DNA from: Candidatus Saccharimonadales bacterium
GTDB lineage: Bacteria > Patescibacteriota > Saccharimonadia > Saccharimonadales > UBA10212
Length of the DNA: 64,000 nt
Direction: 5' to 3'
NCBI GenBank assembly: GCA_025450575.1
Contig: JANWHE010000016.1
Coordinates: 93,874 to 157,873, forward strand
The position numbers and the translations under genes were made by a program. Positions 13,695 to 47,715 of the stretch are shown one piece after another; the first letter of the stretch is position 1; every line of letters begins with the position of its first letter. The notes beneath the pieces were generated by a model. That model was not told the origin of the DNA. It saw only the letters and a list, made by a program, of their open reading frames with translations, and searched no databases.

Positions 13695-13801
13695 TTATAA
13701 TATTTTAACATTTTATCAACACTTTGTCGATTAATAACTCTCGGGATGATCGCCGCCATCCCTTTTTGTAAGGTTTAGAGCATTACGGTTATAATAGAGG
13801 C

Positions 13802-17978: not shown

Positions 17979-17986
17979 TGACCTAA

Positions 17987-18571
17987 TTATAACCTTGGCT
18001 GAGCTTTAGAGACAAAACGATTATCCTTGATGTAAAACCGCCAGGGCTGGTCGGCGGCTTTGGTAATACCGATACGCTGCCCGACTACGATTTCTTCGCC
18101 TGGCGCCACTTTGCCCGGTTCTAATATAATACTTGACTTGTTAAGTATTTTGCCGGAGAGGGAGGTATCGGTTATGCCCAATGCCTGAGCCAATCGGCCG
18201 GGACCACTAGCCAGTTTATATATGTCACGGATACCTCTGTTAGTTTGCATTATTTCTACACCATCTAGCGGTTCGGCGGCCCGGATCAGCACGGCTTCTC
18301 CCCTGCCCGCCGAACCGGTGACAATGTTCAGCGCGTAGTGCATCCCGTAAGTGAAATAAACGTACAACCGGCCGCCGGCCTGGAACATCGGCGCCGTCCG
18401 CGGCGTCAAGCCGCGGAAACTATGGCTAGCCGGGTCGTCCTGATGGTAGGCTTCGGTCTCGACAATCCGGACTTTGATTATTCCTTCTGGCGTTTGGCGT
18501 ACCAAGCAACAGCCCAGTAACCGCGGCGCCGCTTCCAGTGAGCTACGGCTAAGGACTTCCCGCAGATCCAT
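17987..18571 (-). CDS. mpg: DNA-3-methyladenine glycosylase (Mpg/AAG family)
   Basis: 194-aa ORF. The motifs LLG..LVR...VRIVETEAY...DPASH.FRG.T.R...MF..GG..YVYF.YGMH..LN are typical of the family. Confidence 0.9.
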   Translation of the reverse strand: MDLREVLSRSSLEAAPRLLGCCLVRQTPEGIIKVRIVETEAYHQDDPASHSFRGLTPRTAPMFQAGGRLYVYFTYGMHYALNIVTGSAGRGEAVLIRAAEPLDGVEIMQTNRGIRDIYKLASGPGRLAQALGITDTSLSGKILNKSSIILEPGKVAPGEEIVVGQRIGITKAADQPWRFYIKDNRFVSKAQPRL

Positions 18572-20519: not shown

Positions 20520-20554
20520 AAACTAAATTATATAGTGAATCGCCCTTAAGCGGG

Positions 20555-31681: not shown

Positions 31682-31722
31682 ATTTAATATTCTAGTCGTT
31701 AAACTGAATTAAACCTGAAAAT

Positions 31723-32478
31723 CTATAAAGTCGCGCCGGTCCAGTTGGAGAAAACTATGATTATGAACAGAATCGCCAGCATGATGCCCAGCATCTGCCG
31801 CCTCAGTAGTCCGGACAGCCTTTCGGTGGCGTCCAAGTAATAAAGAGCGGCCAAGCCGTAGCCAATAGTCGTTAGGATCACGATGATCTGGGCGACCGTG
31901 CCGTAAAACAGCAGCCAGTGGGCCAATACAAAAGCCAAGCTGGCCGAAAAATAAGCCCAGATGTGGGCTAACAGCGCGCTATGCGGCTCCTCGAACGAAG
32001 TCAGGTAATGGCGGGCGGATAAATAGGTTACCAGCCAGGTACCGGCCACTAGGCCGACGATGGAACTGTCGCCGAATTTCAGATAAAGCAAGCTTAATCC
32101 CAACAACTGGCCGATCATCGCCTGCGCCGAGACGCTTAGAACGTCATAGCGCGGCTTCAGCCATAGCAGCCAGCCGCCGTAAAGCACCATCCAAAACAGT
32201 TGCCACCAGCCACCGGTAGTGCTGGCCATGAATAGCACCAGCGACACGGCCACCATGATATCCACGCCGTTACCGATAAGATTAGCCATCCAATAACGCG
32301 GCCGGACGGCGAACATCCGCCATTTGCTTAAGACAATCAGCAGGATAGCAATGCTGACGAAGTCTATGCGCACTAAGATGTAGGCCAGTATCGGCAGCAG
32401 TAAGTTCAAGCCCAGATAAAAGATATGGGAAAAGCCGCGGCTGGGCTTGATTCTAGCGGGTAGAGCTCGCATCTTCAC
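31723..32478 (-). CDS. hypothetical polytopic membrane protein
   Basis: 251-aa ORF (GTG at 32478 or ATG at 32472) with 7-8 hydrophobic helices. It overlaps the 3' end of the LCP gene. Confidence 0.55.
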   Translation of the reverse strand: MKMRALPARIKPSRGFSHIFYLGLNLLLPILAYILVRIDFVSIAILLIVLSKWRMFAVRPRYWMANLIGNGVDIMVAVSLVLFMASTTGGWWQLFWMVLYGGWLLWLKPRYDVLSVSAQAMIGQLLGLSLLYLKFGDSSIVGLVAGTWLVTYLSARHYLTSFEEPHSALLAHIWAYFSASLAFVLAHWLLFYGTVAQIIVILTTIGYGLAALYYLDATERLSGLLRRQMLGIMLAILFIIIVFSNWTGATL

Positions 32479-34090
32479 CTAAGATTATAACAAATTTGGT
32501 CCCCGACGGCGGCGTGACCCCGAACTGCGCGGGCACTTTACCGACAGAGGTGACTCCCAACCGGCCTTCCAGGTAATGAGCCGTGTATTTATCGGCGCCC
32601 TTACTTAAGTCCACCAAAGTGCTGGCCGACGGATCGGTGGCGTTGCCGGCGTTCTGGACAGTAGTGACGTTATAACCATACGATTTCAGCAGCTTGGATT
32701 CGGCCGTCGCCACACCGGCCGTGCCGGTGGCGTTATATATCGCGACCGAAGCGTTCTCGCGGGTTATCAGGCCGTCTTTCAGCGCGCCATGCAGGAATGT
32801 ATGGATGTCGGTGTAATCATACAGCCCGGCCCGCGGCTCAACGATGGATAAGCCGCCCATGTTACCGGTAGTCAGCAGGGCGTTGGGCGGCGTGACCATA
32901 TCCAGCGATTGGATTGAGGCGCTAGGAATAGTGGACATTTGCTTATATAAGCATTTGATATCGGTGACCGAAAAGTCGGTGTAAACGTTGGCACCCAGGC
33001 TGTCCAGCAAGCTGGAGATCCTCAGCGGATTGGCGAAAGTACCGGCGCTGAAGGTCTTATCTTTGATGGCGGCGATCAGCAGGCGCTGCCGCTGGCCGCG
33101 GGCGAAGTCGCTGGATGTCTCGCGCGAGCGGGCATACAGTAATGCTTGGGCGCCATTAAAAGTCTGGACGCCTTTTTTAGCAATTACCGGATTGTTATGG
33201 TTCTCCCAAGCGATAGTCGGGTCGTACACAGTTTCGGGCACGTTAACCGTTACCCCGCCTAAGGCATCAACCATCTCTTTGAAGGCCGAGAAGTCCAACA
33301 GCACGTGATAGTTGATATGTACTCCGTCCAATATGGGCTGCAATGTCTTATCCAGTTCGGCGATGCCGGCCTCTTCTTGGCCGGCCTGCGACTTGGAATT
33401 CGATTCGTCGACGGCATCGGCGTAAGCGGCATTGATCTTTTGAGTGCCATTATTAGGGATATGGACCCATAGGTCGCGCGGGATAGACAACAAGACGGCT
33501 TTGTCGTTAATGGGGTCGATGCTGGCCAGTAGGATGGTATCCGTCAGATTAGGGCCGTCATGTCCCGGGCCGCCGATCCCCAGCAGCAATATATTGATGC
33601 GGCTGTCGCCCTCCTTGTTGACCTGTGAGACATCGACATTATCCGTACAGACGGTCACCGATTTGCCGCCACCAGCCAAGACTTTCTTCTGAGTATGATA
33701 AAGCTTGTATCCGAAGTAGGCGCCGCCGGCCAGAATAAGGATCATAAAAGTCATAGCCGTGCGCTTGATCCGCCGCTTCAGTTTGGCATGGCGCTGCCAG
33801 AACCGCAGTTTACGCTGGCGGCTCTGGATGTCATCTAAAACTATCGGTTCTTCTAATAGGTGGGCGGCTTCTTCGGATTCGGAATAATCCAGCGGCCGCG
33901 ACGGCATGGCCTCGCGGGCCGAATAAAAACCGTCGGTCCGTCCAGTAAAGTTGCCAAGGGTCGGCGTCGGAGCCGGCCGCGACGGCTGGTAAGAGGACGT
34001 CTTGGGAAAGCCTATCTGCCTTCCGCTCTGAACAATTCCATCAATCGAAGCCGGTTGGTTACGGCCCCTACGGCCCTTATGTTTTTCCAT
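32453..34090 (-). CDS. LytR-CpsA-Psr (LCP) family cell-envelope transferase with LytR_C-like tail
   Basis: 545-aa ORF with a cytoplasmic basic N-terminus, one TM helix and the LCP core (INILLLGIGG...NLTDTILLASIDP...LLSIPRDLWV). Confidence 0.88.
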   Translation of the reverse strand: MEKHKGRRGRNQPASIDGIVQSGRQIGFPKTSSYQPSRPAPTPTLGNFTGRTDGFYSAREAMPSRPLDYSESEEAAHLLEEPIVLDDIQSRQRKLRFWQRHAKLKRRIKRTAMTFMILILAGGAYFGYKLYHTQKKVLAGGGKSVTVCTDNVDVSQVNKEGDSRINILLLGIGGPGHDGPNLTDTILLASIDPINDKAVLLSIPRDLWVHIPNNGTQKINAAYADAVDESNSKSQAGQEEAGIAELDKTLQPILDGVHINYHVLLDFSAFKEMVDALGGVTVNVPETVYDPTIAWENHNNPVIAKKGVQTFNGAQALLYARSRETSSDFARGQRQRLLIAAIKDKTFSAGTFANPLRISSLLDSLGANVYTDFSVTDIKCLYKQMSTIPSASIQSLDMVTPPNALLTTGNMGGLSIVEPRAGLYDYTDIHTFLHGALKDGLITRENASVAIYNATGTAGVATAESKLLKSYGYNVTTVQNAGNATDPSASTLVDLSKGADKYTAHYLEGRLGVTSVGKVPAQFGVTPPSGTKFVIILGEDASSTR

Positions 34091-35939: not shown

Positions 35940-35958
35940 GACTTAATTATACGATATT

Positions 35959-36717: not shown

Positions 36718-36819
36718 TTTTATGTCTTCCCTGTCTGTTTAAGATTAGCATAAGCAGGGCTAGTGGGCTAGATGTCAATACTTGTTAAGCTTTATGTTTT
36801 AAGGTAAATTAACACCTAT

Positions 36820-37536
36820 ATGGACGATATCCGCCGCCCTCATCACCAGCGACGCGATTTCGCTATGCGCCATCGCCCTCACCAGCCCCCGCCCAGTCCT
36901 AACTCTCCGGCTCCCGGTCCCGCGCCGGCGCCGGCCATTCCCCATCATACACCGGCCGCGGTCCCTCAGGACGGCCTGGCGCCGGCAGCCGCCTCCGAAA
37001 CCGGTTATGAACATTACGGCCGGCCGGCGCCGCGGCCTAATCTCCAGCCGGCCGCCAAAAAAAAGCTGCTGCCCAAGATCCGGCCCAGATACGCCGCGGC
37101 CGGTTTAGCCGCCGTCTTATTGATAGCCGCCGGCGCTTATCTGCTCACCCGGCCGGCCCAAAAATCCGGGTTTTCGGTAGCCCAGCTGGCCAAAAAGTCG
37201 GCTTTCAGCTTTTATTATCCCCAGCCGCTACCCAACGGCTACGCTTACGTGACGAAAATCAACGCCTTCCAGGGCGGCCAGGCGTACTTTATGCTGGCCA
37301 ACGGGTCCAAACATATTATCTTCCGCGAACAAGCGGCCGGCGGCCAAACGACCGGGGGCCTGAGCGGCTCCCATAATATCCGTTCGGCGGCCGGCACGGC
37401 GGCCATTGGCACCCAAGCCGGCCAGCCGGCCGCCAAAGTGCTGGCCGGGTCCACGCTGATATCTATTAATACCACCGGCTCGGTGCCGTCCGCCGATCTC
37501 ACCTGGGTTATCGATTCTCTGAAAACTGACCGTTAA
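36820..37536 (+). CDS. single-pass membrane protein, paralog A (Arg/Pro-rich N-terminus, conserved ectodomain; DUF4367-like, tentative)
   Basis: 238-aa ORF: MDDIRRP..RRDF, a Pro-rich linker, a TM helix (AAGLAAVLLIAAGAYLL), then YYPQPLPNGYAYV.. It shows clear similarity to ORFs 37576-38247 and 40290-40958. Confidence 0.65.
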   Translation: MDDIRRPHHQRRDFAMRHRPHQPPPSPNSPAPGPAPAPAIPHHTPAAVPQDGLAPAAASETGYEHYGRPAPRPNLQPAAKKKLLPKIRPRYAAAGLAAVLLIAAGAYLLTRPAQKSGFSVAQLAKKSAFSFYYPQPLPNGYAYVTKINAFQGGQAYFMLANGSKHIIFREQAAGGQTTGGLSGSHNIRSAAGTAAIGTQAGQPAAKVLAGSTLISINTTGSVPSADLTWVIDSLKTDR

Positions 37537-37575
37537 TGTTGCTAAGCGTAAGCGATTTAAGGTAAATTATCAGAT

Positions 37576-38247
37576 ATGGATGAGATGAGAGACCGCTACC
37601 GTATGCCGCGGCGGGATTACGCCGCACCGGTCCGCCGGCCAATGGCGCCTGCTCCTTCGTCTGCGCCGCCTAACCCAGCGGCTCCCGCCCCTGTCAGCCA
37701 AGCCCCGCAGCCTCAGCACGAGCCAAGCCCGTACCAAGCGCCGGCCAGACCGCCCCGCCGGGCTAAAAAACGCCGGCTACTGAAGTTATTTATCATCTTA
37801 CTGATCTTGGCGGCGCTGGCTGGTGGCGTCTTTTTGGCTTACCGTAAGTATTACGTCAAAAATCCCTTCCCGGCCGATATCCGCCAAAACGCCGGCCTTG
37901 ACCTGCTGTATCCCACTAAATTGCCGACAGGTTATACGATCGACCCCACCTCTATGCAGCAGACCAACGGCATATTACTGTACGATGCCACCAGCGGCAG
38001 CAACCGGCTGGTCTTCACTCTGCAAAAAACCCCTTCGACGTTCGATTTCGCCACTTTTTACAAACAGCAGCTGCAGGATAACCAGCAGTTCTCCACTCCT
38101 TACGGACAGGCGGCAGTCGGCAAGAACAGTAACCGTTATCTGGGCAGCTTAGTAGACGGTAATACTTGGCTGCTGCTCAGCACCAACACCTCCAGCTTAA
38201 GCGCCAGCGACTTCACCCAGACGCTTAATAGCCTCAAAAATTATTAG
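37576..38247 (+). CDS. single-pass membrane protein, paralog B
   Basis: 223-aa ORF: MDEMRDRYRMPRRDY, a Pro/Ala-rich linker, a TM helix (LFIILLILAALAGGVFLAY), then LLYPTKLPTGYTID.. Confidence 0.65.
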   Translation: MDEMRDRYRMPRRDYAAPVRRPMAPAPSSAPPNPAAPAPVSQAPQPQHEPSPYQAPARPPRRAKKRRLLKLFIILLILAALAGGVFLAYRKYYVKNPFPADIRQNAGLDLLYPTKLPTGYTIDPTSMQQTNGILLYDATSGSNRLVFTLQKTPSTFDFATFYKQQLQDNQQFSTPYGQAAVGKNSNRYLGSLVDGNTWLLLSTNTSSLSASDFTQTLNSLKNY

Positions 38248-38298
38248 TTTACAGATTCTAAAGGTATAATGGAGCTAGCTTTCACGGAATAAACAAAC

Positions 38299-40245
38299 AT
38301 GCGAAAAAACCCACTACCCAAAACTAAGGTAGCCAAAAGAGCTGTCAGTATGCTGGTCTTACTGATTTTCATATCGACCTTGATGTTTGTCTTCTATCGG
38401 CCGAGGGTACATGCCCAGGTCTTCCTGACAAGTGGAAATACCTGGACGGTACCCTCGGACTGGTCGAATGGCAATAATATTATCGAGGTCATAGGAGGCG
38501 GAGGCGGAGGCGGTGGTGGTTCTTCGGCTGGTCCTGGCAATGGCTGGGGTGGTGGTGGTGGTGGTGGTTATTCTAAGATTCTGAACACCAGCTTCACGCC
38601 CGGTACGGTTGTGACTATAGCCATTGGGGTGGCCGGCACGGCCGGAGCAGCCGGGGGTAATGACGGCGGCGCCGGCGGCGACACTTACCTATGCAGCGCG
38701 ACGACCAGCTGCTCGAGCATAACTGATACGAACGTGATCGTTGGCGCCAAAGGCGGCGGGGCCGGTACATCAACGGGTGGCGGCGCGGGCGGAGCAGCCG
38801 CTAGCGGCGTAGGCTTGAGCAGCTTCAGCGGTGGTACTGGTGGAGCCGGCGCCGGCGGAGCTGGTAACGCCGGAGGCGCCGGCGGATCGGCGGGCGGCGC
38901 GGGCGGACCTAGCGCCGATGGCAACGCAGGCGCTAACGGTTCAGGTGGTAGCGGTAACAGCGGCGGGGCTGGAGCTGCTGGTGGCCGGGCTGACGGCAGC
39001 GCCGGAGGCGCGGGCGGAACGGCCGGAACAGCCGGCGGCGGGGCCGGCGGAGCGGCTGGAAATGGGACTGAATATGATTCTACCCATGGTTCAGGTGGGG
39101 GTGGCGGCAGTGGTGGAGGCGGTGACCGTAGCGCTAACGGCGGGGCCGGCGGAGCTTCCGGTAATTACGGTGGAGGCGGTGGAGGCGGTGGAGGCGGCGG
39201 TCGTAGCGCCGTTGGTAGCGCTGGTGCTGTTGGCAAACAAGGCATCATCCGGATAAGCTATACTCAGGTAAGCCAGGCAGATTACCGTTGGCGGTCCGAT
39301 GACGGCAACGAAACCACTGGCTCTTCCCTGGCGGCTCAGGATACACCGGCCTCGATTAACAGTAGTTCCGCCGTACGATTAAGATTCCTGATTACTGACA
39401 ATGGTGAAAGCACCACTAACACCTATCGTTTAGAGTACGCTCCACACTTAGCAGGCTGTTACACCTGGACTACCGTACCGAATGTAGCTACCACCGAGCA
39501 CTTTAATATGTATAGCACTAGCAATTATACGGACCAGGCGGCCTCGACCAACGTATTATCGGGCCCGGCAGTCATCACCGACCCGTCCGGTTTCAGTTTC
39601 ACGGCCGGCAAGCTCGTCAAATCGACCTCCAACTCCGCGACGGTCACAATCGGCGGCGGCCAGTTCACAGAGATAGAGTATGCTTTCCAGGCCAATTCTA
39701 ACGCCACTTATTCATCCTACTGTTTCCGGGTGACCAACGCCGGCACGCCTTTGGATATTTATAATAATTACCCCATCCTGAATGTCCAGTACACACCTTC
39801 GGCACCGATGGTTTATAGCCCGGCCAGCAGTGCCACCGGAGTGTCGCGGCTGCCGATTTTCCAGATGAGGAGTACCGACCTTAATAATGACTATCTGCAG
39901 TACGTAGTCGAAGTTTGCTCGGCGAACAGCTTCCCTTGCGGCGCGGCTTACAACAAGACATACAATGAGACCAACGCCTGCTGGAGCCAGCAGGATCTGC
40001 AGTCTGGCACGGCTTTCACCGGCTCCAGCGATTTGAACGTCTCGGCGATGGCCTATTGCCAGATCCCGGCCGCCGATTTACTCAGCCCCAATACTACGTA
40101 TTATATGCGCGCCAAAGCCATCGACCCCGGCGGCAGCAACACCTACAGCGCCTATTCATCGGTAGTCAGTTTTACCACATCGACCCTAGACGTCCAGATA
40201 AACGGCGGCTCGACAATCAAAGGTGGCACTAAAATCGGCGGTTAA
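38299..40245 (+). CDS. secreted glycine-rich-domain protein with C-terminal beta-sandwich/FN3-like modules
   Basis: 648-aa ORF with an N-terminal signal/anchor. TSGNTWTVPSDW..IEVIGGGGGGGGG is followed by about 270 aa of Gly/Ala-rich sequence ending in GIIRISY. A non-repetitive C-terminal half follows (YRWRSDDGNET..RLRF..YRLEY, ..TTYYMRAKAIDPGG). Confidence 0.7.
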   Translation: MRKNPLPKTKVAKRAVSMLVLLIFISTLMFVFYRPRVHAQVFLTSGNTWTVPSDWSNGNNIIEVIGGGGGGGGGSSAGPGNGWGGGGGGGYSKILNTSFTPGTVVTIAIGVAGTAGAAGGNDGGAGGDTYLCSATTSCSSITDTNVIVGAKGGGAGTSTGGGAGGAAASGVGLSSFSGGTGGAGAGGAGNAGGAGGSAGGAGGPSADGNAGANGSGGSGNSGGAGAAGGRADGSAGGAGGTAGTAGGGAGGAAGNGTEYDSTHGSGGGGGSGGGGDRSANGGAGGASGNYGGGGGGGGGGGRSAVGSAGAVGKQGIIRISYTQVSQADYRWRSDDGNETTGSSLAAQDTPASINSSSAVRLRFLITDNGESTTNTYRLEYAPHLAGCYTWTTVPNVATTEHFNMYSTSNYTDQAASTNVLSGPAVITDPSGFSFTAGKLVKSTSNSATVTIGGGQFTEIEYAFQANSNATYSSYCFRVTNAGTPLDIYNNYPILNVQYTPSAPMVYSPASSATGVSRLPIFQMRSTDLNNDYLQYVVEVCSANSFPCGAAYNKTYNETNACWSQQDLQSGTAFTGSSDLNVSAMAYCQIPAADLLSPNTTYYMRAKAIDPGGSNTYSAYSSVVSFTTSTLDVQINGGSTIKGGTKIGG

Positions 40246-40289
40246 AGCCGCTTGTGGTTTAAACCACCAATACGTTATCTTATCTATAG

Positions 40290-40958
40290 ATGGATGAAGA
40301 GTTACGTAGCCGACACCGGCGCGATTTTCGGAACGAGGTGATTGGGCGGCGCCCAGCTCGGGCCCAAAAGCCCTTAAGGGCAGAGCCGGCCGAAGTTATC
40401 AATTTTAGGCCCGTTGAAATGCATAAACCGTCTACCAGGCCCCGCCACGGCCGCCGCAAAGGGATTTTAATTGGCTTGATGGTTCTTTTATTGGCCAGCG
40501 CCGGCATTGTCCTATACTTGTGGTGTCCCTGGCATAAGAACCTCCAGGCTACCCAAAAAATCCCAGTCGTACCCGCAGCTATTTCAAATGGTGTCAGCTA
40601 TAAGGTTTACTACCCTGACCCGGCTAAATTGCCGGCTGGCTACACGTTGGTCCGCAGTTCATTCACTATGCCGGTTAAGAACGGCGTGGCTTACTGGGTG
40701 AGCTATGATAATGGCAAACATATAGTCTTTTCGGTGCAAAGCAAGCCCTCCGATACCGAACTCCAGACTTTCAATAGCAACTACATCCCCCTGCGCAACG
40801 ATTACCAGACAGGGGTGGGCCAGGCCGAGATTGGCGCCTACCATAACCAAACCCTGGTCAGCCTGCCGGCTACCAACGGCCCTTGGATAGTCATATCCGC
40901 CCCCCAGGACATCAGCCAGGACAAGCTAAAACAAGTCCTCAGCTCGATTACTAAATAG
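40290..40958 (+). CDS. single-pass membrane protein, paralog C
   Basis: 222-aa ORF: MDEELRSRHRRDF..GRRP, a TM helix (ILIGLMVLLLASAGIVLYLW), then VYYPDPAKLPAGYTLV..HIVFSVQ.. Confidence 0.65.
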   Translation: MDEELRSRHRRDFRNEVIGRRPARAQKPLRAEPAEVINFRPVEMHKPSTRPRHGRRKGILIGLMVLLLASAGIVLYLWCPWHKNLQATQKIPVVPAAISNGVSYKVYYPDPAKLPAGYTLVRSSFTMPVKNGVAYWVSYDNGKHIVFSVQSKPSDTELQTFNSNYIPLRNDYQTGVGQAEIGAYHNQTLVSLPATNGPWIVISAPQDISQDKLKQVLSSITK

Positions 40959-40959
40959 T

Positions 40960-43900
40960 CTAATTGCCGGTCACTACGTATTGGTCGGTGGTTATTGTAT
41001 TGGACGCGCTATTGGCGCTCCAGACCGGGAAGAGATAAAGGTTAGCCGCCGAAGACGTAGTGAGGCCGGTAGTGCTGGCCGTGGATACCATGTTGAATAC
41101 ACCGAACTGACCGGTGGCGGTAGTGGTGGTGACAGTCTGCAGGTAGAACAGCCCCTGGCCGTCCATGCTGGTAGTCGAGAAGCAGACTATCTTGTAATCG
41201 ATTATCCATTGGGCGTTGCTTATCGTTGAGCCGGCAGTGGCCGTCGGCGATGCCGCGCCGATAAGCGTATCGCTGGTACGGGTGGTGTTGGTGCCATAGC
41301 GGACTTCCATCTGCAGGGTCGGGGCGCTGGTCGTACCATAGTGGCCGCGGGCATAGATATGTATCACCCGTCCGGCCTGGCAGTAGTTGGCCGGAATCGA
41401 TGCCGCGCCCAGATTGCCGCAAGCCGTCGTACAGGTGTTGATGGCCGATCCAATGGAAGTATTAGAGTAAAGCAAGCCGTTACAGGTAGTCCAGGCGCCG
41501 GCCACGCCGCACATGAAGTTATGGTCGGTTGAACTGTAGAACATGGCGCCGTTTATCTCGGTGGCAGCGTTGGAAATCGTACCCTGGTTGAAGGTTGAAT
41601 CGCTGTCGGTGTCGAGCACTAGCAGCGTACCGGTAGTGTCGGATGTGCCGATGTTCACAGTGCCGGTGCTGGTGTTAACGTTCAAGAGGCTGGTGCCAAG
41701 ACCGCCGGCGTTGGTGCCGCGAACCGCGAATATTATACCCGCCAGGCTGGTATCGGCGTCCTGGATGTCGAACGCACCGGTATCAGTGCCGCCGGCATTC
41801 AGTTTAATTTCCGGAGTAGTGCTACCTGTCGAGGAGTTATATGTAGTCTGCAATGTAGGCGTGCTGATGGAACCCATCGACGACCAGGTGCCGTTCAGGC
41901 AGCCGCGGAAAGTATTAGAGGTAGTGTTATAGTAGAAGGCCCCGTTGATACAAGTCGGATCGGCGCTGGCCGAACCGAATTTTACTACCGCTGAACCATT
42001 GACCTGCACCTGGCCAGAGCCGCCGGAGTTAAGTATCAAGTAATCCGATGAACCGCTGCCGCTCTGCAGAGTCAGCGTACCGGCGGTAGTCTGCCAGCTA
42101 GAGGCAGCGTGGCCGGTAATATTAACTGCTGCCCCGCTACCAGAATTGACCGTTATGGCACCGCTGCCGGTACCGACCGCTACCGTACCGCTGCTGGCCG
42201 TGTAGTTAGCTGTGCTGGTAGCTGTATCGTAATAAATCAAGGCGTAATTGGTTGAGCCGCCGTTTTCCATAACCCGCAGGGCCCGGCCGCTGGTATCAAC
42301 CGACAAGACGGTGGCGTTACCGGAGTTCTGGACGACGAAACCAGCGGTCGAATCAGTGTTGGTATGGAAAGTGGTCTGCCCGGAGCTATTGACCGTTATG
42401 GAGTTAGCCGCGTTGGCGTTAACCTGCAGCTCAAACCCCTTGCCGGAAGCCGCCTTGACCGAGGCCGCGCCGTTAGCGCCGTCATAGCCAAACTGCGCGC
42501 GGCTATTATTGGCCCCGTAGTAAAAGGAGTTGCTGGAGCTATCGGTGGTAGCCAGCAAATCAACGGCTGAATTGGTACCAGCGCCGGCGTAAATTTTTAC
42601 CCCTTGGGTGGCGGTCAGAGCCTGTGAGGTCGAGCCCAGCGTAATGTAATCGCTGGTAGTGTCGATATTAAACAGGCTGTTGTTGCTGCTGTTCTGTACT
42701 TGGAGAGCCGCCGTTGAATTGGTGGTCACGCTTTGAATCAAGACGCCGTTGTTGGTCGACGAATTCGTTTTTAGGTTTATGCCGGCATCAGATTTCAAGT
42801 TGACCACGCTGCTGCCGCTGTTAGAACCGATATTGACCGTCTGCGTAGTGGTGCTGGCGCCATTGCCGATATTAAAGGTGTGGGTGACGTCGGTGTTGCC
42901 CAGATTGATACCGCCGGTGTTACCGCCCTCGATATTGACGGCGTTGGTCGTGTTACCATTGCTGCCGATAGTTATAGTGTTGGTCGCCGAAGCGTTGGCG
43001 TTAGTAGCGATATTGATAGTCGAGTTACTGGCGTTGCTGGCCGTCAGGCCGATGTTGACCGTCTGGGCGTGGCCGCCGACGTTGCCGATCTTGACGGTAC
43101 CGGCGGCGCCGGTATCGCTATCGATGGTCACGCTGTTGCCGCCGGAAGTAGTGTCGACCGCTATAAAGTTATTGTTGCTGGCGTCTTGGACCACGAAAGC
43201 CGTGGTGCTGCCGCTGCCGGTGGTGTGAACCTTGGTGGCGCCGGTATTGCCAACGCCGAAGACTACTGTTCCCAGGCCTCCCCCGCCGCCGTTACTGGCG
43301 TTGATATCCAGGATATCGGCACCTACCGTACTATCGGCGTCTTGGATATTAAGAGTACTGCGCGTGCTATCAAGTTTGATTTCCGGTGTCGTGCCGCCAA
43401 TTGAGTTAGTGTAGCCGAGCTGAAGCGTACTGGCGTCAATACCGGCGATTGTCCAGGCTGAACCTATGTATATGAGCGTCGCCGAACTGCCCGGTGCCAG
43501 ATTATAGCTGCCCGCCCCCGTATTCAGCGTGAAAGCATTGGTGCCGCCGTTACCTACATAAAGCAGCCGGCCAGTGGTCGCCGTCGTCGGCGCCGGGACC
43601 GTGAAAGTCAGGCCTGTAGCCGTAGCCGTGGCGCTGATGGTGGTATTGTTATCGACCAAAGACTGGGTGATGGTGCTGTTAGCGCCACTGGTGTAGGTGT
43701 TAGATGCGAAAACCGTGCCGCCGGCCACAGTTACGGTCGGCGTGGAGGTATTGACGCTGAAGACAGCGGCGCTACCAGTGGTCTGAACCTGGAAGGCCGA
43801 CGTGGAGTTGGCGGCGTTCTTGACGGTCACGTTACCGGCGGCGCCGACGCCGGTATTCAGTCCGGCGACCAGAGTGATATTGCCACCGGCGTTGTCACCG

Positions 43901-46900
43901 GATCCGCCGGCGGCGCCGCCATTGATGCTCACGTTGCCACCGGCGGATCCGGTGCTGCTGCCGTTGCCGGCGCCCCCATAGAGGTTCAAGTTGCCGCCGG
44001 CCGTCCCGGTCGCCGATGAACCCGTACCCTTGACGTTGAAGTTATTCGGTGCGGCATTCGTTCCGCTGCCATCGGCGTTGCCTAAGTACAAGTTATTGCT
44101 CTGATCAAAAGTAGCTCGCCCCGTGTTGTTAGTTATAATCTGCAAGCTGTTGGCGTCTTTGGTTCCCAAGCTGGCTAAGCTGCCGGTCAGGCTGCCTAAG
44201 GTGTTGCCGCCGTTCACGAAAGCCACGCCGGTTCCGGTAGTGATACAAGCCGCCAGTTTGTTGGAGCTATTCCGGCACAGGTAAGAGGTGTTATCAGCTG
44301 TGCCTAGGGCTCCGGCGGCCACAATGATGCCGCCGCCCGGCTGCAAGGTTAGGCTGCCGCCGATGGTCGAACCGATAGTAATCGTGCTGGCGCTGCTGGC
44401 CGTAGTATTGGTCGAACCGATGTTTATCGTCTGGGTTACGGCCACGCCGGTAGAGTTACCTATCTGGACAGTCGAACCGGTCTGAGTATTGCCAAGATAT
44501 AGAGTGCCACCGTTGGTGTCGGCCTGTATGTAAGTATGGCTGCCAGCGGCGTCCTGCACCTGGAAGCCGTTAGTGTTGGTTACTTGGAAAGAGTTAGTGC
44601 TAGAGAAAGTGTTAGCCGCGTTATTCAGGACGATGTGGGAGCTATCGCTAAGGTTAGTGCTAGCGATTTGCGAGCCGCCGACTTCGTAGAATTTAGTGGC
44701 CGGAATATTGACATTACCATCCTTATCAACGCTGAATTTCTCAGCGCCCCCATTTTGCAAGCTCAACAGCTTAGCTCCGGCTGTAGAATAGGTATTGGCA
44801 GTATTGAGCGTAAAGCCGACAGCGCTGGCGCCGTCGGCCAGATTGCTGAATAGCTTGTTGGTGGTGGCGTCAACGCCCAGCACCGTGACGCTAGAGGAGT
44901 TCTGAACCTGGAAAGCCGTGCTTGAGGTGTTGGTTATCAGCAACGGCGCCGGCTCGTTGGCTTTCTTCAGATAAAAATCATCGAAGTAGAACGTGCCGGT
45001 GGTTGCCGTAGCTTTGACGCTAGCCGCCAGCCGCAGGAAGTAAGAACCGGCCGGGACAGTGGCGGTTATCGTCTTCTTGACATAGCTGGTGCCTGGCAGT
45101 CCGGTGTCGGCGTTGCTGAAGGTCGTGCTGGCTTTGTCTTTGTCGTCAAATTCTATGTAGATTCCGGCATCACCGGTAGCGCCAGCGCTGTTCTTGACCC
45201 AGGCTTCGGCGTAGATAGTATCGCCCGGATGTACTGCGAAGTACGGTGTCGTTACGGCGTGAGTCGTGGAGTTGCCGGTTACCTGCAGTTCGTAATTGCC
45301 GCTGTGGGCATTGGCCGAGCTGTTGGTTATCACCTGCGTGGCGCTAGGCGTATACCAGCCGGTGGCATCGGTTGTCCCGCTGGATTCAAAACTAGGATTT
45401 TGGATTTCATTGCCCAGGTTATCTACCCCGTTATTAATCACGTAACCGTCGCTGGTGTTGGCATTAAGCAAAGCCGAAGCCGTTGAGGTCTGGATTCGAA
45501 AAGCGGTGTTTGAATCACTGAAGTTTTCAAAAGCGGCGGCGCCGGTAGTGGACAGACTTTGAACCACGTGATTATTAGTTATGATATTCAGACCATTCGA
45601 ATCAATGGTGCCCAAGACTCCAGTACCTCCAAAGCCGCTATTTCCGCCGTTGACAAAGGCGGTGCCCGTCCCAGAAATAAACCCGCAGCTGGAACTGGCC
45701 TGAATACACAGCGTTCCATTTTCGGCCGGTAAATGGATAGTGTAGCCGGTACTGCTTGGGTTAGTGGCATCAAGCGTTATGGACCCAGTCTGGGCGGCGA
45801 AATTAAACTTTAATTTGCCGGTAATGCCACTGGCGCCGGAGTTGCCCAGAATCACCGTATCACCCGCGGTATCGACAGTTAAGACAGACTTGCTTGAGGC
45901 CGAATCGTTTATTACTAGACCGGCGGCATTATTGTTGGCTAAGGTGGTCAATCCGCCATTAGCGATCGTCAGTACCGGCGTGGCATTATTCTTAAAGACG
46001 GCGATATTCCCAGTCGAGGTTGAATTAGACACATTCAGGGCGTCGCCGCTGGTCGAGCCGGTCAATGAAGTCAGCGCCGATGTTACCGTCAAGGTTTTAC
46101 TGGCCGCCACCGTCGTGTTGCCGCCCAGGCTGATGCCGCCGGAACCGGAGTTCAGACTCAGCGCCCCGCCATTAACGCTATTGCCGATCGTGACGTTGGT
46201 CAACCCGGTACCAGCCGGCGTGCCGGCGCCGATATTAATGGTCTGGGTCTTGCCGGTAGCGGTATTGGCGTTGCCGATGTTAATGGTATTGGTATCCGTT
46301 GATTGGCCGAAGGTCAGGCCGCCGGTTTCGGATGTCGAACCAATTGTGATAGTACTGGCAGCCGTATCCGGGTTGATATTAAGGCCGCCGCCATCGCTTA
46401 TAGTAAGAACGGGGGTAGAATTATCATTGAATACGGCGATATTGCCGGTCGAGGTGGAGTTGCTGACGTTTAGAGCGTCGCCGCTGGTCGCGCCGGTCAG
46501 CGATGTTAAGGCCGATGTGACAGACAGAGTCTTGCCGGCCGCCACGGTCGTATTATTGCCCAGAGTTATCCCGCCTCCGCCATCTATGGCCGTCACCGCC
46601 GAACCACCGGTCTGGCCGATAGTTATGCCGCTGGCGCTAGTCGTACCGATTGATATGGTGCCGGTAGTCCCGGTGCCGGATTTCGTGCCCGAGTCGATGG
46701 TGATATTGCCGCTGCTGCTGTTGGTGCCGCCGGCGGCATCGCCGGACTTGATAGTCACGCTGCCGGAACTTAAGCTGCTGCCGGTCTCGTTGCCGCTGCG
46801 CAAGGTTATGGCCGCGGTATTGGCGGCCGCCGAATCAGTGGTCTGGACCAGCGGCGTCTGCAGCGCCGTGCCAATAATCCCCGTTCCGCTGATGTTAAAG

Positions 46901-47580
46901 CCGGCCGTCTGGACGGCCGCTGTCTGGTTCTGAATAAAATCCGTACCCGTGGTTGTTTCGAACCCGCAGGCACTAGACGTCTGCAGACAAATCGTACCAG
47001 ATGCGTCCGGCAGCAGAATATTTGGATCGTTGGCCACCGTGTTAAAGCCCAGCGTTCCGCGGTGGGCGCCGCTGGTCAGTGCCAGCTGGCCAGCCGTGAA
47101 GGCGTAGGGTAAAGCCGTCAGCGCGATGCTGTGGCCGCTGTTCTGCATCTCCCCGTCCCAACTCGGTGTACCCGTACCGCCGATTCTCATAGTCAGCCAC
47201 AGCTGTTGATCCCAGTTAATACTACCGAAGGCCGTAACACTGCCCAGATTGACACTGAAATAACCGTTTATCACAGGAATGACATTAGCGCCGGTTCGGG
47301 TTTCCATCCACAGACAAGCGCCGCTACAACTACCCTGAGACCCAGTGGTACTGTCGGCATTATAAATCTTAAACTCAATGTTGTAGTTGCCGTCCGGCAC
47401 GATGCCCCCGGCGCTGTTCAGTAGCCGGGCCTGGAAATTAAGGGTCGAAGAGGTGGTTGCCGCTTGCGCCACCGGAGCGGCTACCGACATGAAAACGCCC
47501 ACAAACAAAGCGAACCCCAATAGGGGGGCCATTAGCCATATATTGACCGCGCGCGTACGCGCAAGTAGGCGTCGATGCAT
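40960..47580 (-). CDS. giant secreted surface protein (2206 aa) with Thr/Ser/Gly/Asn-rich repeats and a CBM4/9-like carbohydrate-binding module
   Basis: Single uninterrupted ORF with a signal peptide (..FMSVAAPVAQA/ATT). The motif [AG]F.VQ(N/D/T)....(V/I)D recurs at least 7 times. A jelly-roll-like module spans aa 717-873 (NPSFESS..GW..HSGNYELQV..FYFDDFYLKK). The C-terminal region is Cys-containing. Confidence 0.85.
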   Translation of the reverse strand: MHRRLLARTRAVNIWLMAPLLGFALFVGVFMSVAAPVAQAATTSSTLNFQARLLNSAGGIVPDGNYNIEFKIYNADSTTGSQGSCSGACLWMETRTGANVIPVINGYFSVNLGSVTAFGSINWDQQLWLTMRIGGTGTPSWDGEMQNSGHSIALTALPYAFTAGQLALTSGAHRGTLGFNTVANDPNILLPDASGTICLQTSSACGFETTTGTDFIQNQTAAVQTAGFNISGTGIIGTALQTPLVQTTDSAAANTAAITLRSGNETGSSLSSGSVTIKSGDAAGGTNSSSGNITIDSGTKSGTGTTGTISIGTTSASGITIGQTGGSAVTAIDGGGGITLGNNTTVAAGKTLSVTSALTSLTGATSGDALNVSNSTSTGNIAVFNDNSTPVLTISDGGGLNINPDTAASTITIGSTSETGGLTFGQSTDTNTINIGNANTATGKTQTINIGAGTPAGTGLTNVTIGNSVNGGALSLNSGSGGISLGGNTTVAASKTLTVTSALTSLTGSTSGDALNVSNSTSTGNIAVFKNNATPVLTIANGGLTTLANNNAAGLVINDSASSKSVLTVDTAGDTVILGNSGASGITGKLKFNFAAQTGSITLDATNPSSTGYTIHLPAENGTLCIQASSSCGFISGTGTAFVNGGNSGFGGTGVLGTIDSNGLNIITNNHVVQSLSTTGAAAFENFSDSNTAFRIQTSTASALLNANTSDGYVINNGVDNLGNEIQNPSFESSGTTDATGWYTPSATQVITNSSANAHSGNYELQVTGNSTTHAVTTPYFAVHPGDTIYAEAWVKNSAGATGDAGIYIEFDDKDKASTTFSNADTGLPGTSYVKKTITATVPAGSYFLRLAASVKATATTGTFYFDDFYLKKANEPAPLLITNTSSTAFQVQNSSSVTVLGVDATTNKLFSNLADGASAVGFTLNTANTYSTAGAKLLSLQNGGAEKFSVDKDGNVNIPATKFYEVGGSQIASTNLSDSSHIVLNNAANTFSSTNSFQVTNTNGFQVQDAAGSHTYIQADTNGGTLYLGNTQTGSTVQIGNSTGVAVTQTINIGSTNTTASSASTITIGSTIGGSLTLQPGGGIIVAAGALGTADNTSYLCRNSSNKLAACITTGTGVAFVNGGNTLGSLTGSLASLGTKDANSLQIITNNTGRATFDQSNNLYLGNADGSGTNAAPNNFNVKGTGSSATGTAGGNLNLYGGAGNGSSTGSAGGNVSINGGAAGGSGDNAGGNITLVAGLNTGVGAAGNVTVKNAANSTSAFQVQTTGSAAVFSVNTSTPTVTVAGGTVFASNTYTSGANSTITQSLVDNNTTISATATATGLTFTVPAPTTATTGRLLYVGNGGTNAFTLNTGAGSYNLAPGSSATLIYIGSAWTIAGIDASTLQLGYTNSIGGTTPEIKLDSTRSTLNIQDADSTVGADILDINASNGGGGGLGTVVFGVGNTGATKVHTTGSGSTTAFVVQDASNNNFIAVDTTSGGNSVTIDSDTGAAGTVKIGNVGGHAQTVNIGLTASNASNSTINIATNANASATNTITIGSNGNTTNAVNIEGGNTGGINLGNTDVTHTFNIGNGASTTTQTVNIGSNSGSSVVNLKSDAGINLKTNSSTNNGVLIQSVTTNSTAALQVQNSSNNSLFNIDTTSDYITLGSTSQALTATQGVKIYAGAGTNSAVDLLATTDSSSNSFYYGANNSRAQFGYDGANGAASVKAASGKGFELQVNANAANSITVNSSGQTTFHTNTDSTAGFVVQNSGNATVLSVDTSGRALRVMENGGSTNYALIYYDTATSTANYTASSGTVAVGTGSGAITVNSGSGAAVNITGHAASSWQTTAGTLTLQSGSGSSDYLILNSGGSGQVQVNGSAVVKFGSASADPTCINGAFYYNTTSNTFRGCLNGTWSSMGSISTPTLQTTYNSSTGSTTPEIKLNAGGTDTGAFDIQDADTSLAGIIFAVRGTNAGGLGTSLLNVNTSTGTVNIGTSDTTGTLLVLDTDSDSTFNQGTISNAATEINGAMFYSSTDHNFMCGVAGAWTTCNGLLYSNTSIGSAINTCTTACGNLGAASIPANYCQAGRVIHIYARGHYGTTSAPTLQMEVRYGTNTTRTSDTLIGAASPTATAGSTISNAQWIIDYKIVCFSTTSMDGQGLFYLQTVTTTTATGQFGVFNMVSTASTTGLTTSSAANLYLFPVWSANSASNTITTDQYVVTGN
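45952..46134 (-). repeat. internal protein repeat, copy 2 (aa 483-543 of the giant protein)
   Basis: ISLGGNTTVAASKTLTVTSALTSLTGSTSGDALNVSNSTSTGNIAVFKNNATPVLTIANGG. It is near-identical to copy 1, which lies 145 aa upstream. Confidence 0.75.
46387..46569 (-). repeat. internal protein repeat, copy 1 (aa 338-398 of the giant protein)
   Basis: ITLGNNTTVAAGKTLSVTSALTSLTGATSGDALNVSNSTSTGNIAVFNDNSTPVLTISDGG. Confidence 0.75.
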
Positions 47581-47667
47581 TTTTGTAAGGTGTTTTTGTG
47601 TTTATTTTGGCTTTTGGTTTTTGTAAAGCCTAGTAACAGGTTACGCTTATCTGTTAGGCGCGTCAAC

Positions 47668-47690
47668 GAAAAAACGGCCTTTCGGGCCGT
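47668..47690 (-). terminator. intrinsic terminator of rplU
   Basis: Stem ACGGCC(47674-47679)/GGCCGT(47685-47690). On the minus strand a T5 run follows, about 25 nt after the rplU stop. Confidence 0.65.
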
Positions 47691-47715
47691 CACTTATCCA
47701 CACCTTGACTACAGT

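Follow-up and report, generated by a model that had tools for sequence, protein, structure and literature searches.

The 64-kb window examined here, by which we mean the whole stretch of DNA that was analyzed, is a segment of the chromosome of a soil Saccharibacterium (Saccharimonadales). Saccharibacteria are ultrasmall bacteria that live attached to host bacteria. Between parA and rplU, the gene for L21, the window carries an island (36718-47715) that encodes three related membrane proteins, which we call A, B, and C, together with a glycine-rich protein and a giant surface protein. From left to right, the genes of this region encode RF1, PrmC, HtrA, a membrane protein, LCP, signal peptidase (SPase), ParB, ParA, A, B, the glycine-rich protein, C, the giant protein, L21, and IleRS. 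The glycine-rich open reading frame (ORF) is flanked by the B and C genes, and the C gene ends 1 nt short of the stop codon of the convergent giant gene (window 40956-40962). With the two stop codons 1 nt apart there is no space for a terminator, so the two transcripts would overlap or terminate within the opposite gene. For the three family ORFs, all on the forward strand, the coordinates given in Table 1 are exactly those of an earlier interpretation of this DNA made without database searches, referred to below as the sequence-only reading.

That A, B, and C are related to each other, as the sequence-only reading proposed, was confirmed by pairwise BLASTP comparisons, which gave E values of 5e-7 for A and B, 2e-9 for A and C, and 1e-17 for B and C. 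The alignments span the C-terminal ectodomain, beyond the proline-rich low-complexity stretch, and the three proteins are true paralogs with one common architecture. In the three-way alignment the invariant residues (A numbering) are Y133-P134, L137-P138, G140-Y141, F168, Q171, G192, A194, G197, and S233, which are the positions of the ectodomain motifs noticed earlier (YP..LP.GY, VF..Q, and G.A.(I/V)G). The N-terminal motif previously written as M-D-[DE]-x-R..RRD[FY]..R[RH]P is broadly present in all three proteins, with two departures. A starts with MDDIR…RRDF, in which RRDF occupies residues 11-14, and continues with RHRP instead of the expected R[RH]P; B starts with MDEMR…RRDY (RRDY at 12-15, RRP at 20-22); and C starts with MDEELR, in which the arginine is shifted by one residue, followed by RRDF at 10-13 and RRP at 20-22. 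Clusters of lysine and arginine lie ahead of each hydrophobic helix, which fits an orientation with the N terminus inside the cell (N-in). The automatic gene call for C (P0004) has only 179 aa and starts at Met44, so that 40290-40421 and the conserved N-terminal motif are lost. This call is too short; the 222-aa start is preferred because of its N-terminal similarity to B, the homologue P0018, and the promoter-like site for the ATG at 40290.

The main question was what accompanies these genes in other genomes. The family profile was searched in a word-indexed database, and a second, exhaustive HMMER search covered 1.84 billion representatives. Scans anchored on C-type genes gave 9 loci in one-genome-per-species contigs and 26 in JGI metagenomes, 35 in total, and for each we asked which gene lies beyond the stop codon of the C-type gene. 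Three of them are uninformative (two contigs stop at C and one is rearranged at its end). In all of the 32 informative loci, a homologue of the tip of the window's giant protein (aa 2035-2206, about 170 aa) is found on the convergent strand, and in 28 of these the stop codons of the C-type and giant genes are tail to tail and at most 73 nt apart (range, 3-73 nt). A single ORF separates the C-type gene from the tip in L006, L028, and L029; in L028 and L029 this ORF also belongs to the family. In L008 the distance between the C-type gene and the tip-bearing gene is 7.6 kb. The tip-bearing genes, where complete, encode 1,600-3,300 aa. The pair of C-type and giant genes is found amid unrelated flanking genes in L002, L004, L005, L008, L009, L015, L017, L034, and L036. 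As the pair is kept in different flanking contexts, it moves as one unit and is more than frozen synteny. The order of glycine-rich gene followed by C is kept in L013-L019 and L021.

Loci anchored on A-type genes, among them L039-L041, L044, and L045, were added to counter a bias towards C. In L039 and L044 the order is ParA, A, B, and a convergent giant gene with a window-type tip; there the B-type gene adjoins the tip, and neither C nor the glycine-rich gene is present. L040 and L045 have A and B followed by a convergent DUF2207 gene, and in L040 the giant protein ends in a glycine-rich region, with a divergent family member just downstream of its gene. In L041 the giant protein has another C terminus, followed by a 97-aa motif protein and then by another bitopic protein. 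A close relative, L010, has proteins 79-96% identical to those of the window. Here A, B, the glycine-rich gene, and the giant gene are kept and C is absent. The stalk of the L010 giant is 62-77% identical to that of the window up to a conserved F.C..G.W..C junction (62% over the last ~250 aligned residues), and the last ~150 aa after this junction (L010 12719-13169, reverse strand) are unrelated to the window tip encoded at 40963-41478. In L010 the stop codons of the giant and glycine-rich genes overlap.

The number of family copies varies from 1 to 3 per island. In the cultivated Southlakia epibionticum, L21 is directly beside ParA (SEML1_0182-0183) and the island is absent (PMC10633639, Table S1), which indicates that the parA-rplU site acts as a hotspot of insertion or variation. 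No tRNA gene was found by ARAGORN in the window and therefore none at the island borders. The island is an accessory, variable surface-protein locus of which the family members are a constant ingredient. The sequence-only reading had suspected a dedicated cell-surface module rather than random paralogs, and here it was right, as the family adjoins giant or glycine-rich genes in every locus with enough flank and the tip homologue accompanies the C-type gene across related genomes.

The giant protein has an N-terminal signal-like segment, a conserved N-terminal domain, a long stalk, and the tip. Neither it nor the glycine-rich protein has a real match in Pfam, NCBIfam, or PHROG; the L010 orthologue of the glycine-rich protein weakly matches PF21722 (Gly_rich_2). 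In the AlphaFold2 (AF2) model of the tip, the predicted local distance difference test score (pLDDT) is 82-92 over most of the chain, with one 10-residue block at 63, and Foldseek matched the model to the CBM2 of the Lactobacillus phage J-1 Dit protein (5ly8, E 5e-4), to legume lectins, and to a TNF-like lectin. Judged from this model, the C-terminal tip of the giant is lectin-like. The N-terminal ~200 aa of the giant are 36-70% identical in L001, L006, L009, L015, L034, L039, and L040, even where the tip differs. By analogy, the giant resembles fibers with a constant proximal part and a variable distal receptor-binding end. In L040 (12858-18086, reverse strand) the C-terminal ~300 aa of the giant form a long glycine-rich region like the separate glycine-rich protein of the window, which suggests domain fusion or fission between the giant and glycine-rich genes.

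Table 1. Positions of the island genes, their promoter-like elements, and a recurring neighboring ORF (window positions unless a locus is named)
Feature	Position	Strand	Description
Paralog A	36820-37536	+	238 aa; MDDIRRPHHQRRDF cytoplasmic motif, aa 1-14; Pro/Ala-rich linker; transmembrane (TM) helix ~aa 91-110 (37090-37149); ectodomain ~aa 121-238
Paralog B	37576-38247	+	223 aa; MDEMRDRYRMPRRDY motif; Pro-rich linker; TM helix ~aa 68-89 (37777-37842); ectodomain ~aa 100-223
Glycine-rich protein	38299-40245	+	648 aa, secreted or anchored; N-terminal hydrophobic segment; Gly-rich aa ~65-315; beta-rich C-terminal half
Paralog C	40290-40958	+	222 aa; MDEELRSRHRRDF motif; TM helix aa 56-83 (40455-40538); predicted RseB/LolA-like ectodomain aa 95-222 (40572-40955)
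Giant surface protein	40960-47580	-	2206 aa; signal-like segment and conserved domain at the N terminus, then a long, beta-rich stalk rich in Gly, Thr, Ser, and Asn, and the tip
Giant tip coding region	40963-41478	-	aa 2035-2206; predicted all-beta, lectin-like sandwich
-35-like TTGTTA of A	36782-36787	+	17 nt 5' of TAAATT; TTGTTA/TTGCTA kept 5' of A orthologues in L007, L010, L039-L045
13-mer TTAAGGTAAATTA upstream of A	36799-36811	+	holds -10-like TAAATT (36805-36810), 9 nt before ATG
-35-like TTGCTA of B	37539-37544	+	3 nt past A stop; 18 nt 5' of TAAATT; kept in L010, L043
13-mer TTAAGGTAAATTA upstream of B	37557-37569	+	holds -10-like TAAATT (37563-37568), 7 nt before ATG
-10 TATAAT of glycine-rich gene	38265-38270	+	~28 nt before ATG; L010 has AAAGGTTATAAT at the equivalent place
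Promoter-like site of C	40252-40281	+	TTGTGG (40252-40257), 18 nt, TATCTT (40276-40281), 8 nt, ATG
Recurring ~160-aa ORF	L015 5421-5912; L017 5420-5917; L018 586-1077; L021 4463-4942; L027 6406-6897; L034 7339-7836		

The search of the word-indexed database retrieved 67 relatives, of which those with a name are all entered as 'hypothetical protein [Candidatus Saccharibacteria bacterium]'. The exhaustive search returned 1,762 clusters at 50% identity with an E value of <=1e-3, 1,269 of them with <=1e-10. A, B, and C match no model in Pfam, NCBIfam, or PHROG; the scores found were noise, for example DotU, DUF6264, and fn3 at E values around 0.1. In the literature that we searched, no paper was found on the family or on its pairing with giant fiber tips, and queries on LolA or leaderless combined with Saccharibacteria, and on DUF4245, returned nothing relevant. 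By these searches the A/B/C family is large and without annotation, and its members named so far come from Saccharibacteria only. Three groups can be told apart. The A-type proteins (MDDIRRPxxQRRDFAMRHR…) have 222-277 aa, and the orthologues of A (P0005-P0017) are 50-87% identical to it; in every A-type locus seen, A is divergent from parA. The B-type proteins start with MD[DE]MRxRYRxPRRDY…, with P0003 and P0007 as orthologues of B. The C-type proteins have 150-250 aa, and their tails are mostly short (10-25 residues and motif-free in most members), with the motif present in some, such as P0018, P0033, and P0062. Across the family the motif has the consensus MDD[IM]R..R[YF]R..RRD[YF], and D[DE][ILM]R..R[YF]R..RRD[YF] is found at the extreme N terminus of about one-third of 206 members.

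The cytoplasmic motif is also seen elsewhere. A 97-aa protein in L041 (8791-9084, reverse strand), just 3' of the giant gene with the different C terminus, consists only of the MDDIKTLRRTDY motif and one TM helix, indicating that the motif can occur without the ectodomain. The LCP enzyme of the window (32453-34090, reverse strand) has a conserved cytoplasmic N-terminal motif, S[IV]DG[IFM]V, which is also found on the LCP genes of L001, L003, L006, L007, L010, and L039-L043, and which heads some C-type members (P0066 and L008 9938-10519, MSRQSIDGIVKP). The N terminus of P0152, IDDIIRRP, has an intermediate form. On sequence grounds, S[IV]DG[IFM]V and MDDIRRP may be one short motif class. When 603 ORFs of the window and the retrieved loci were scanned, the motif turned up in the A/B/C family and the LCP enzymes only, apart from three chance matches.

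The AF2 model of C, based on a 56-sequence alignment, has a mean pLDDT of 83.5. Residues 1-55 are disordered (pLDDT 52-57), a helix spans 56-83, and residues 95-222 form a compact alpha/beta ectodomain at a pLDDT of >94. When this model was compared with the PDB by Foldseek, the top match was RseB (2v43, E 4e-3, probability 1.0), followed by further RseB structures (2v42/3m4w), TM1622 (1vr8), BT_1490 (3hlz), and M. tuberculosis Apa. The matches to RseB, TM1622, and BT_1490 have probabilities of 0.9-1.0, but they are weak by E value (4e-3 to 5e-2) and by a TM-score over the whole query (TMq) of about 0.3. A profile of the C-type family had no match among all PDB sequences even at E <=10, and Foldseek against the predicted viral structures of BFVD gave only weak 'lipoprotein' matches (E >=6e-3). 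We take these results to point, weakly, to an ectodomain of the LolA/RseB/DUF4367 fold class, with an open beta-sheet.

The sequence-only reading had tentatively seen DUF4367-like features. For the fold class this holds, weakly, given the RseB and TM1622 matches and hidden Markov model (HMM) matches below threshold; membership does not, as no member reaches the gathering score. DUF4367 (PF14285) was detected in 4 of 56 members with a best E value of 0.0047, and the two alignments inspected scored 13.6 and 14.8 bits, against a gathering score of 22.1. A, B, and C themselves have no match to DUF4367 at E <=1, and A-type members match neither DUF4367 nor DUF4245. DUF4245 is an actinobacterial family of unknown function. 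Its model (PF14030) aligned co-linearly with 12 of 56 members at a best E value of 0.0028 and 18.1 bits, against a gathering score of 30.1; these alignments (12-18 bits) take in the TM helix, which is the source of part of the score. By Pfam gathering scores, which we tested and which no member reaches, the family is therefore outside both DUF4367 and DUF4245.

Like the DUF4367 proteins SEML1_0325 and B. subtilis SsdC, the A/B/C proteins have an extracytoplasmic alpha/beta domain of about 110-130 aa after an N-terminal membrane anchor, and in some members a weak HMM alignment is co-linear over the full length, for example, from residues 62-168 of P0045 to positions 7-110 of the 110-position profile. 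Both also have RseB-type structural neighbors; DPAM places residues 201-350 of SEML1_0325 in the RseB C-terminal domain. The differences are that the A/B/C family has its own cytoplasmic motif and a fixed association with giant fiber genes that is undescribed for DUF4367, and that SEML1_0325, which is nonessential, has PEGA and sortase genes as neighbors instead of a giant gene. SEML1_0325 was accordingly not used as an experimentally studied orthologue, as its orthology is unestablished and its gene context differs. DUF4245 proteins, for their part, share the order of TM helix and ectodomain and a similar size, and some C-type members align co-linearly over positions ~10-150 of the 165-position profile. 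As DUF4245 has no known function, the comparison is silent on mechanism.

The gene linkage indicates that the family is probably part of the surface or attachment machinery of the giant fiber. As to how, we tentatively favor, at a confidence a little short of an even chance, the reading that A, B, and C are membrane-tethered protein-binding partners of the giant fiber tip. The ectodomain, tethered on the outer side of the membrane, would bind a protein partner there. For C, and for B in some lineages, this partner would be the C-terminal tip of the giant fiber, bound either while the tip leaves the Sec channel, as by a folding or assembly helper, or later, as by a dock or a mask. A and B would act for the island's other secreted proteins, and the cytoplasmic motif would contact an intracellular partner. 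That the tip is physically bound, or that the proteins take any part in attachment to the host, is what we infer. The reading is plausible because the C terminus of the tip is the last part to come out of the Sec channel and because LolA-like proteins of single-membrane bacteria bind specific protein partners, as GerS does in activating the amidase CwlD; SsdC has a DUF4367 domain (bioRxiv 10.1101/2025.01.13.632879). The group of RseB/MucB, LolA/LolB, and GerS/SsdC includes the best structural matches and likewise places this domain outside the cytoplasmic membrane, and GerS and RseB act by binding a specific protein partner, as we propose here. This group differs from A/B/C in that the identity is only 10-15% (with the Foldseek E value of 4e-3 and TM-score of ~0.3 over the whole query given above), that A/B/C are held in the membrane by an N-terminal TM helix preceded by a tail in the cytoplasm and are neither lipid anchored nor soluble, and that A/B/C have no outer membrane or lipoprotein-sorting pathway to serve.

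Several points weigh against tip binding by these proteins. The binding itself is something that we infer, and the fold assignment comes from a weak Foldseek E value (4e-3) and subthreshold HMM matches. The C and giant genes are convergent and so are not co-transcribed. Specificity is less than strict, as a B-type and not a C-type gene adjoins the same tip type in L039 and L044, and the giant gene of L010 has no adjacent C at all; the joint loss of tip and C was seen in one lineage. The conserved cytoplasmic motif would be superfluous for a purely extracytoplasmic helper, so that the partner reading does not account for it, and it is absent from most C-type members. The genuine DUF4367 protein of S. 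epibionticum, SEML1_0325, was nonessential in transposon sequencing (Tn-seq), with the reservation on its orthology to the family made above. A mirror-tree comparison of the C ectodomain and the tip gave an r of 0.62, a value reached by 0 of 2,000 permutations. We rejected this correlation as evidence of interaction, as shared ancestry alone could yield it.

A bolder extension of the partner reading is that the tip and its cognate membrane-tethered partner form a swappable specificity cassette that sets host range, the partner acting as a helper, a dock, or a self-mask. We regard this as rather unlikely. If true, it would be a cellular counterpart of the receptor-binding-protein/chaperone modules of phages, in a phylum for which little is known of what determines host recognition. 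According to two reports, the molecules with which Saccharibacteria and other Patescibacteria recognize and hold their hosts are, type IV pili apart, largely unknown (PMC10633639; PMC11623550).

A related rival reading is a tip-plus-partner specificity cassette: the small gene would be swapped as one with the final ~170 codons of the giant, and the small protein would protect the cell from, or mature, its own tip. In L010 the tip is replaced past the F.C..G.W..C junction and C is gone; where the giant has another C terminus, its gene is followed at the 3' end by other small bitopic genes (L040 and L041), and the N-terminal domain of the giant is conserved whichever tip it carries. Phage fiber tip/chaperone and polymorphic toxin/immunity systems likewise combine a long fiber and a conserved N-terminal part with an exchangeable C-terminal tip and a small 3'-end gene that is present or absent with the tip (as in L010), and the tip of the window resembles a phage carbohydrate-binding module. 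However, L010 is the single clean swap, the same tip type is adjoined by both B-type and C-type genes, and the tip is lectin-like and not toxin-like. In known cassettes the partner is downstream on the same strand, whereas here it is convergent, both in the window and in each of the 28 tightly linked loci; it is also membrane anchored and LolA-like, and the element is chromosomal and cellular. Tail-fiber assembly and immunity proteins have no sequence or structural relation to A/B/C, and no relation to phage chaperones was found in PHROG or BFVD. We consider this rival unlikely.

Another explanation, to which we give a low probability, is that the proteins are transmembrane sensors or anti-sigma-like regulators, in which an RseB-like ectodomain would sense the state of the envelope, of host contact, or of the fiber and the motif would hold or release a cytoplasmic regulator. 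DUF4367 domains occur on anti-sigma factors of Firmicutes. The bitopic N-in topology fits such a role, as do the conserved cytoplasmic motif on about one-third of the members and its restriction, among the 603 ORFs, to this family and the LCP enzymes, the three chance matches aside. Moreover, the top structural match, RseB, is itself the stress-sensing partner of an anti-sigma factor. Against this, the cytoplasmic part is predicted to be disordered (the residues at pLDDT 52-57), most C-type members have the motif-free tail of 10-25 residues, and neither A, B, and C nor the 56 members matched zf-HC2, RskA, or any other anti-sigma domain of Pfam at E <=1. Among the annotated neighbors of L010 and L039-L045 (S2, L31, RF1, PrmC, HtrA, LCP, SPase, ParB, ParA, L21, and IleRS), there is no Sigma70 domain or sigma-factor gene. 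With neither an anti-sigma domain nor a sigma gene in any neighborhood examined, we rejected the anti-sigma role to which the topology had pointed.

It is likewise improbable, in our view, that the ectodomain is a LolA/LprG-type carrier of lipids or glycolipids that binds acyl chains and aids the uptake of host lipids, or the movement of envelope lipids, beside an adhesin. This would agree with the LolA/RseB-like Foldseek matches and with the position of the genes near surface proteins and the envelope-biogenesis genes for LCP, signal peptidase, and HtrA. It would also fit the lack of fatty-acid biosynthesis in Saccharibacteria, which depend on their hosts (PMC10633639). However, the conserved positions are mainly Tyr, Pro, Gly, and Gln and not a hydrophobic lining, a general carrier leaves the tight coupling to one tip domain unexplained, and the known LolA-like proteins of single-membrane bacteria bind proteins.

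Finally, it is very unlikely that A, B, and C are generic DUF4245-like housekeeping proteins of the envelope or cell division whose position is inherited gene order without functional meaning, since the weak DUF4245 similarity and the constant divergence of A from parA in a conserved backbone (RF1, PrmC, HtrA, LCP, SPase, ParB, and ParA) are set against a C-giant pair that is mobile (kept in at least 9 loci with unrelated flanks), an island that is entirely missing at the same backbone site in S. epibionticum, and a copy number that varies from 1 to 3 per island.

What is new, then, is a family of LolA-like bitopic proteins with a very consistent genomic partnership, whose closest known counterparts are DUF4367, DUF4245, and RseB/LolA/GerS. 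The analysis defines a large unannotated family, its likely fold class, and its tight, transferable pairing with a lectin-like tip in an island at a fixed chromosomal site. With its function suggested by this pairing, the island is a concrete candidate for a host-interaction module of Saccharibacteria. The small partner gene also offers a handle with which to find and classify fiber tips in metagenomes.

A separate result concerns expression. The sequence-only reading drew attention to an identical 13-mer, TTAAGGTAAATTA, that ends 8 and 6 nt short of the ATGs of A and B and that it took to be a possible -10 element of (near-)leaderless mRNAs. The 13-mer is present at both sites, no other copy occurs in the window even with 2 mismatches, and a mismatch search showed no enrichment (9 found versus 11.6 expected). 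We estimate from the base composition that about 35 pairs of exact 13-mers would arise by chance in 64 kb, so the identity by itself is not significant. The equivalent position 5' of two paralogs and the conservation in orthologues of other species are, as judged from the alignments, not chance. Family genes whose products begin with MD[DE] share, in an alignment of the DNA 5' of them, the layout TTGyyA, 17-18 nt, TAAATT (or TACATT), 7-9 nt, and ATG; at least 8 species have kept this layout 5' of their A and B orthologues, with drift in the flanking bases. A promoter-like site lies upstream of C (Table 1), and a C-type gene in L017 has the same layout (TTGTGG, 18 nt, TATGTT, 7 nt, ATG).

We considered two other roles for the 13-mer. 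It was rejected as a Shine-Dalgarno site, as its AAGG stands 15-17 nt before the ATG and a -35 box is conserved at promoter spacing; in L010 the spacer 5' of A is shorter by 2 nt than in the window, which also argues against such a role. A hairpin with a downstream ACCT was rejected because the pairing is lost in B and in L039. Upstream of A, no Shine-Dalgarno site was found at a usable spacing. For A, B, and C alike we found a -10 box that ends 5-9 nt before the start, a -35 box, and no Shine-Dalgarno site. A -10 box 7-9 nt before the ATG makes leaderless mRNAs probable, and each gene is probably transcribed from its own sigma-70-type promoter. The earlier suggestion is thus supported, computationally, by the -35 box conserved at 17-18 nt, by the at least 8 species, and by the frequency of the arrangement in the window. 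There, counting hexamers with at least 5 of 6 TATAAT positions that start at -15 to -10 of long ORFs, we found this geometry without a Shine-Dalgarno site at 12 of 49 genes, against 0.84 expected, with a peak at -13/-12. This suggests that leaderless transcription is common in the source genome. Examples of such near-ATG boxes in the window are 35940-35955 (ParB), 31682-31700 (HtrA), 17979-17995, 20520-20535, and 13695-13710.

Leaderless genes of Actinobacteria, Deinococcus, and others have a TANNNT box a few nucleotides 5' of the start codon. The genes described here resemble them in the succession of -35 box, 17-18 nt, TAAATT, 7-9 nt, and ATG without a Shine-Dalgarno site, and in the recurrence of this geometry in the window. 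They differ in that the geometry is here known from sequence alone, and in L039 and L044 the B gene follows A directly and has no promoter element, which shows that the element marks transcription units and not the protein family. The glycine-rich gene has its -10 box about 28 nt from the ATG and hence would be leadered. A leaderless habit would bear on gene calling, as the start of C had been miscalled, and leaderless starts may be miscalled systematically in this saccharibacterial lineage.

Two further observations were made in the collected loci. Another single-pass ORF of about 160 aa, with an N terminus like M..SKTVRNSGIS…, recurs shortly 5' of the C-type gene (Table 1). In L015, L017, L018, and L021 it immediately precedes the glycine-rich gene, which is the position of B in the window, and in L027 and L034, both without a glycine-rich gene, it lies one or two genes before C; it was not detected by the A/B/C family profile. 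In addition, two contigs labeled as other bacteria, L003 (DATKKU010000031.1, Candidatus Binatia) and L007 (DATIIZ010000046.1, Candidatus Babeliales), have the complete Saccharimonadales gene order of HtrA, LCP, SPase, ParB, ParA, family genes, and giant gene, with proteins 51-83% identical to those of the window, and were probably mis-binned.

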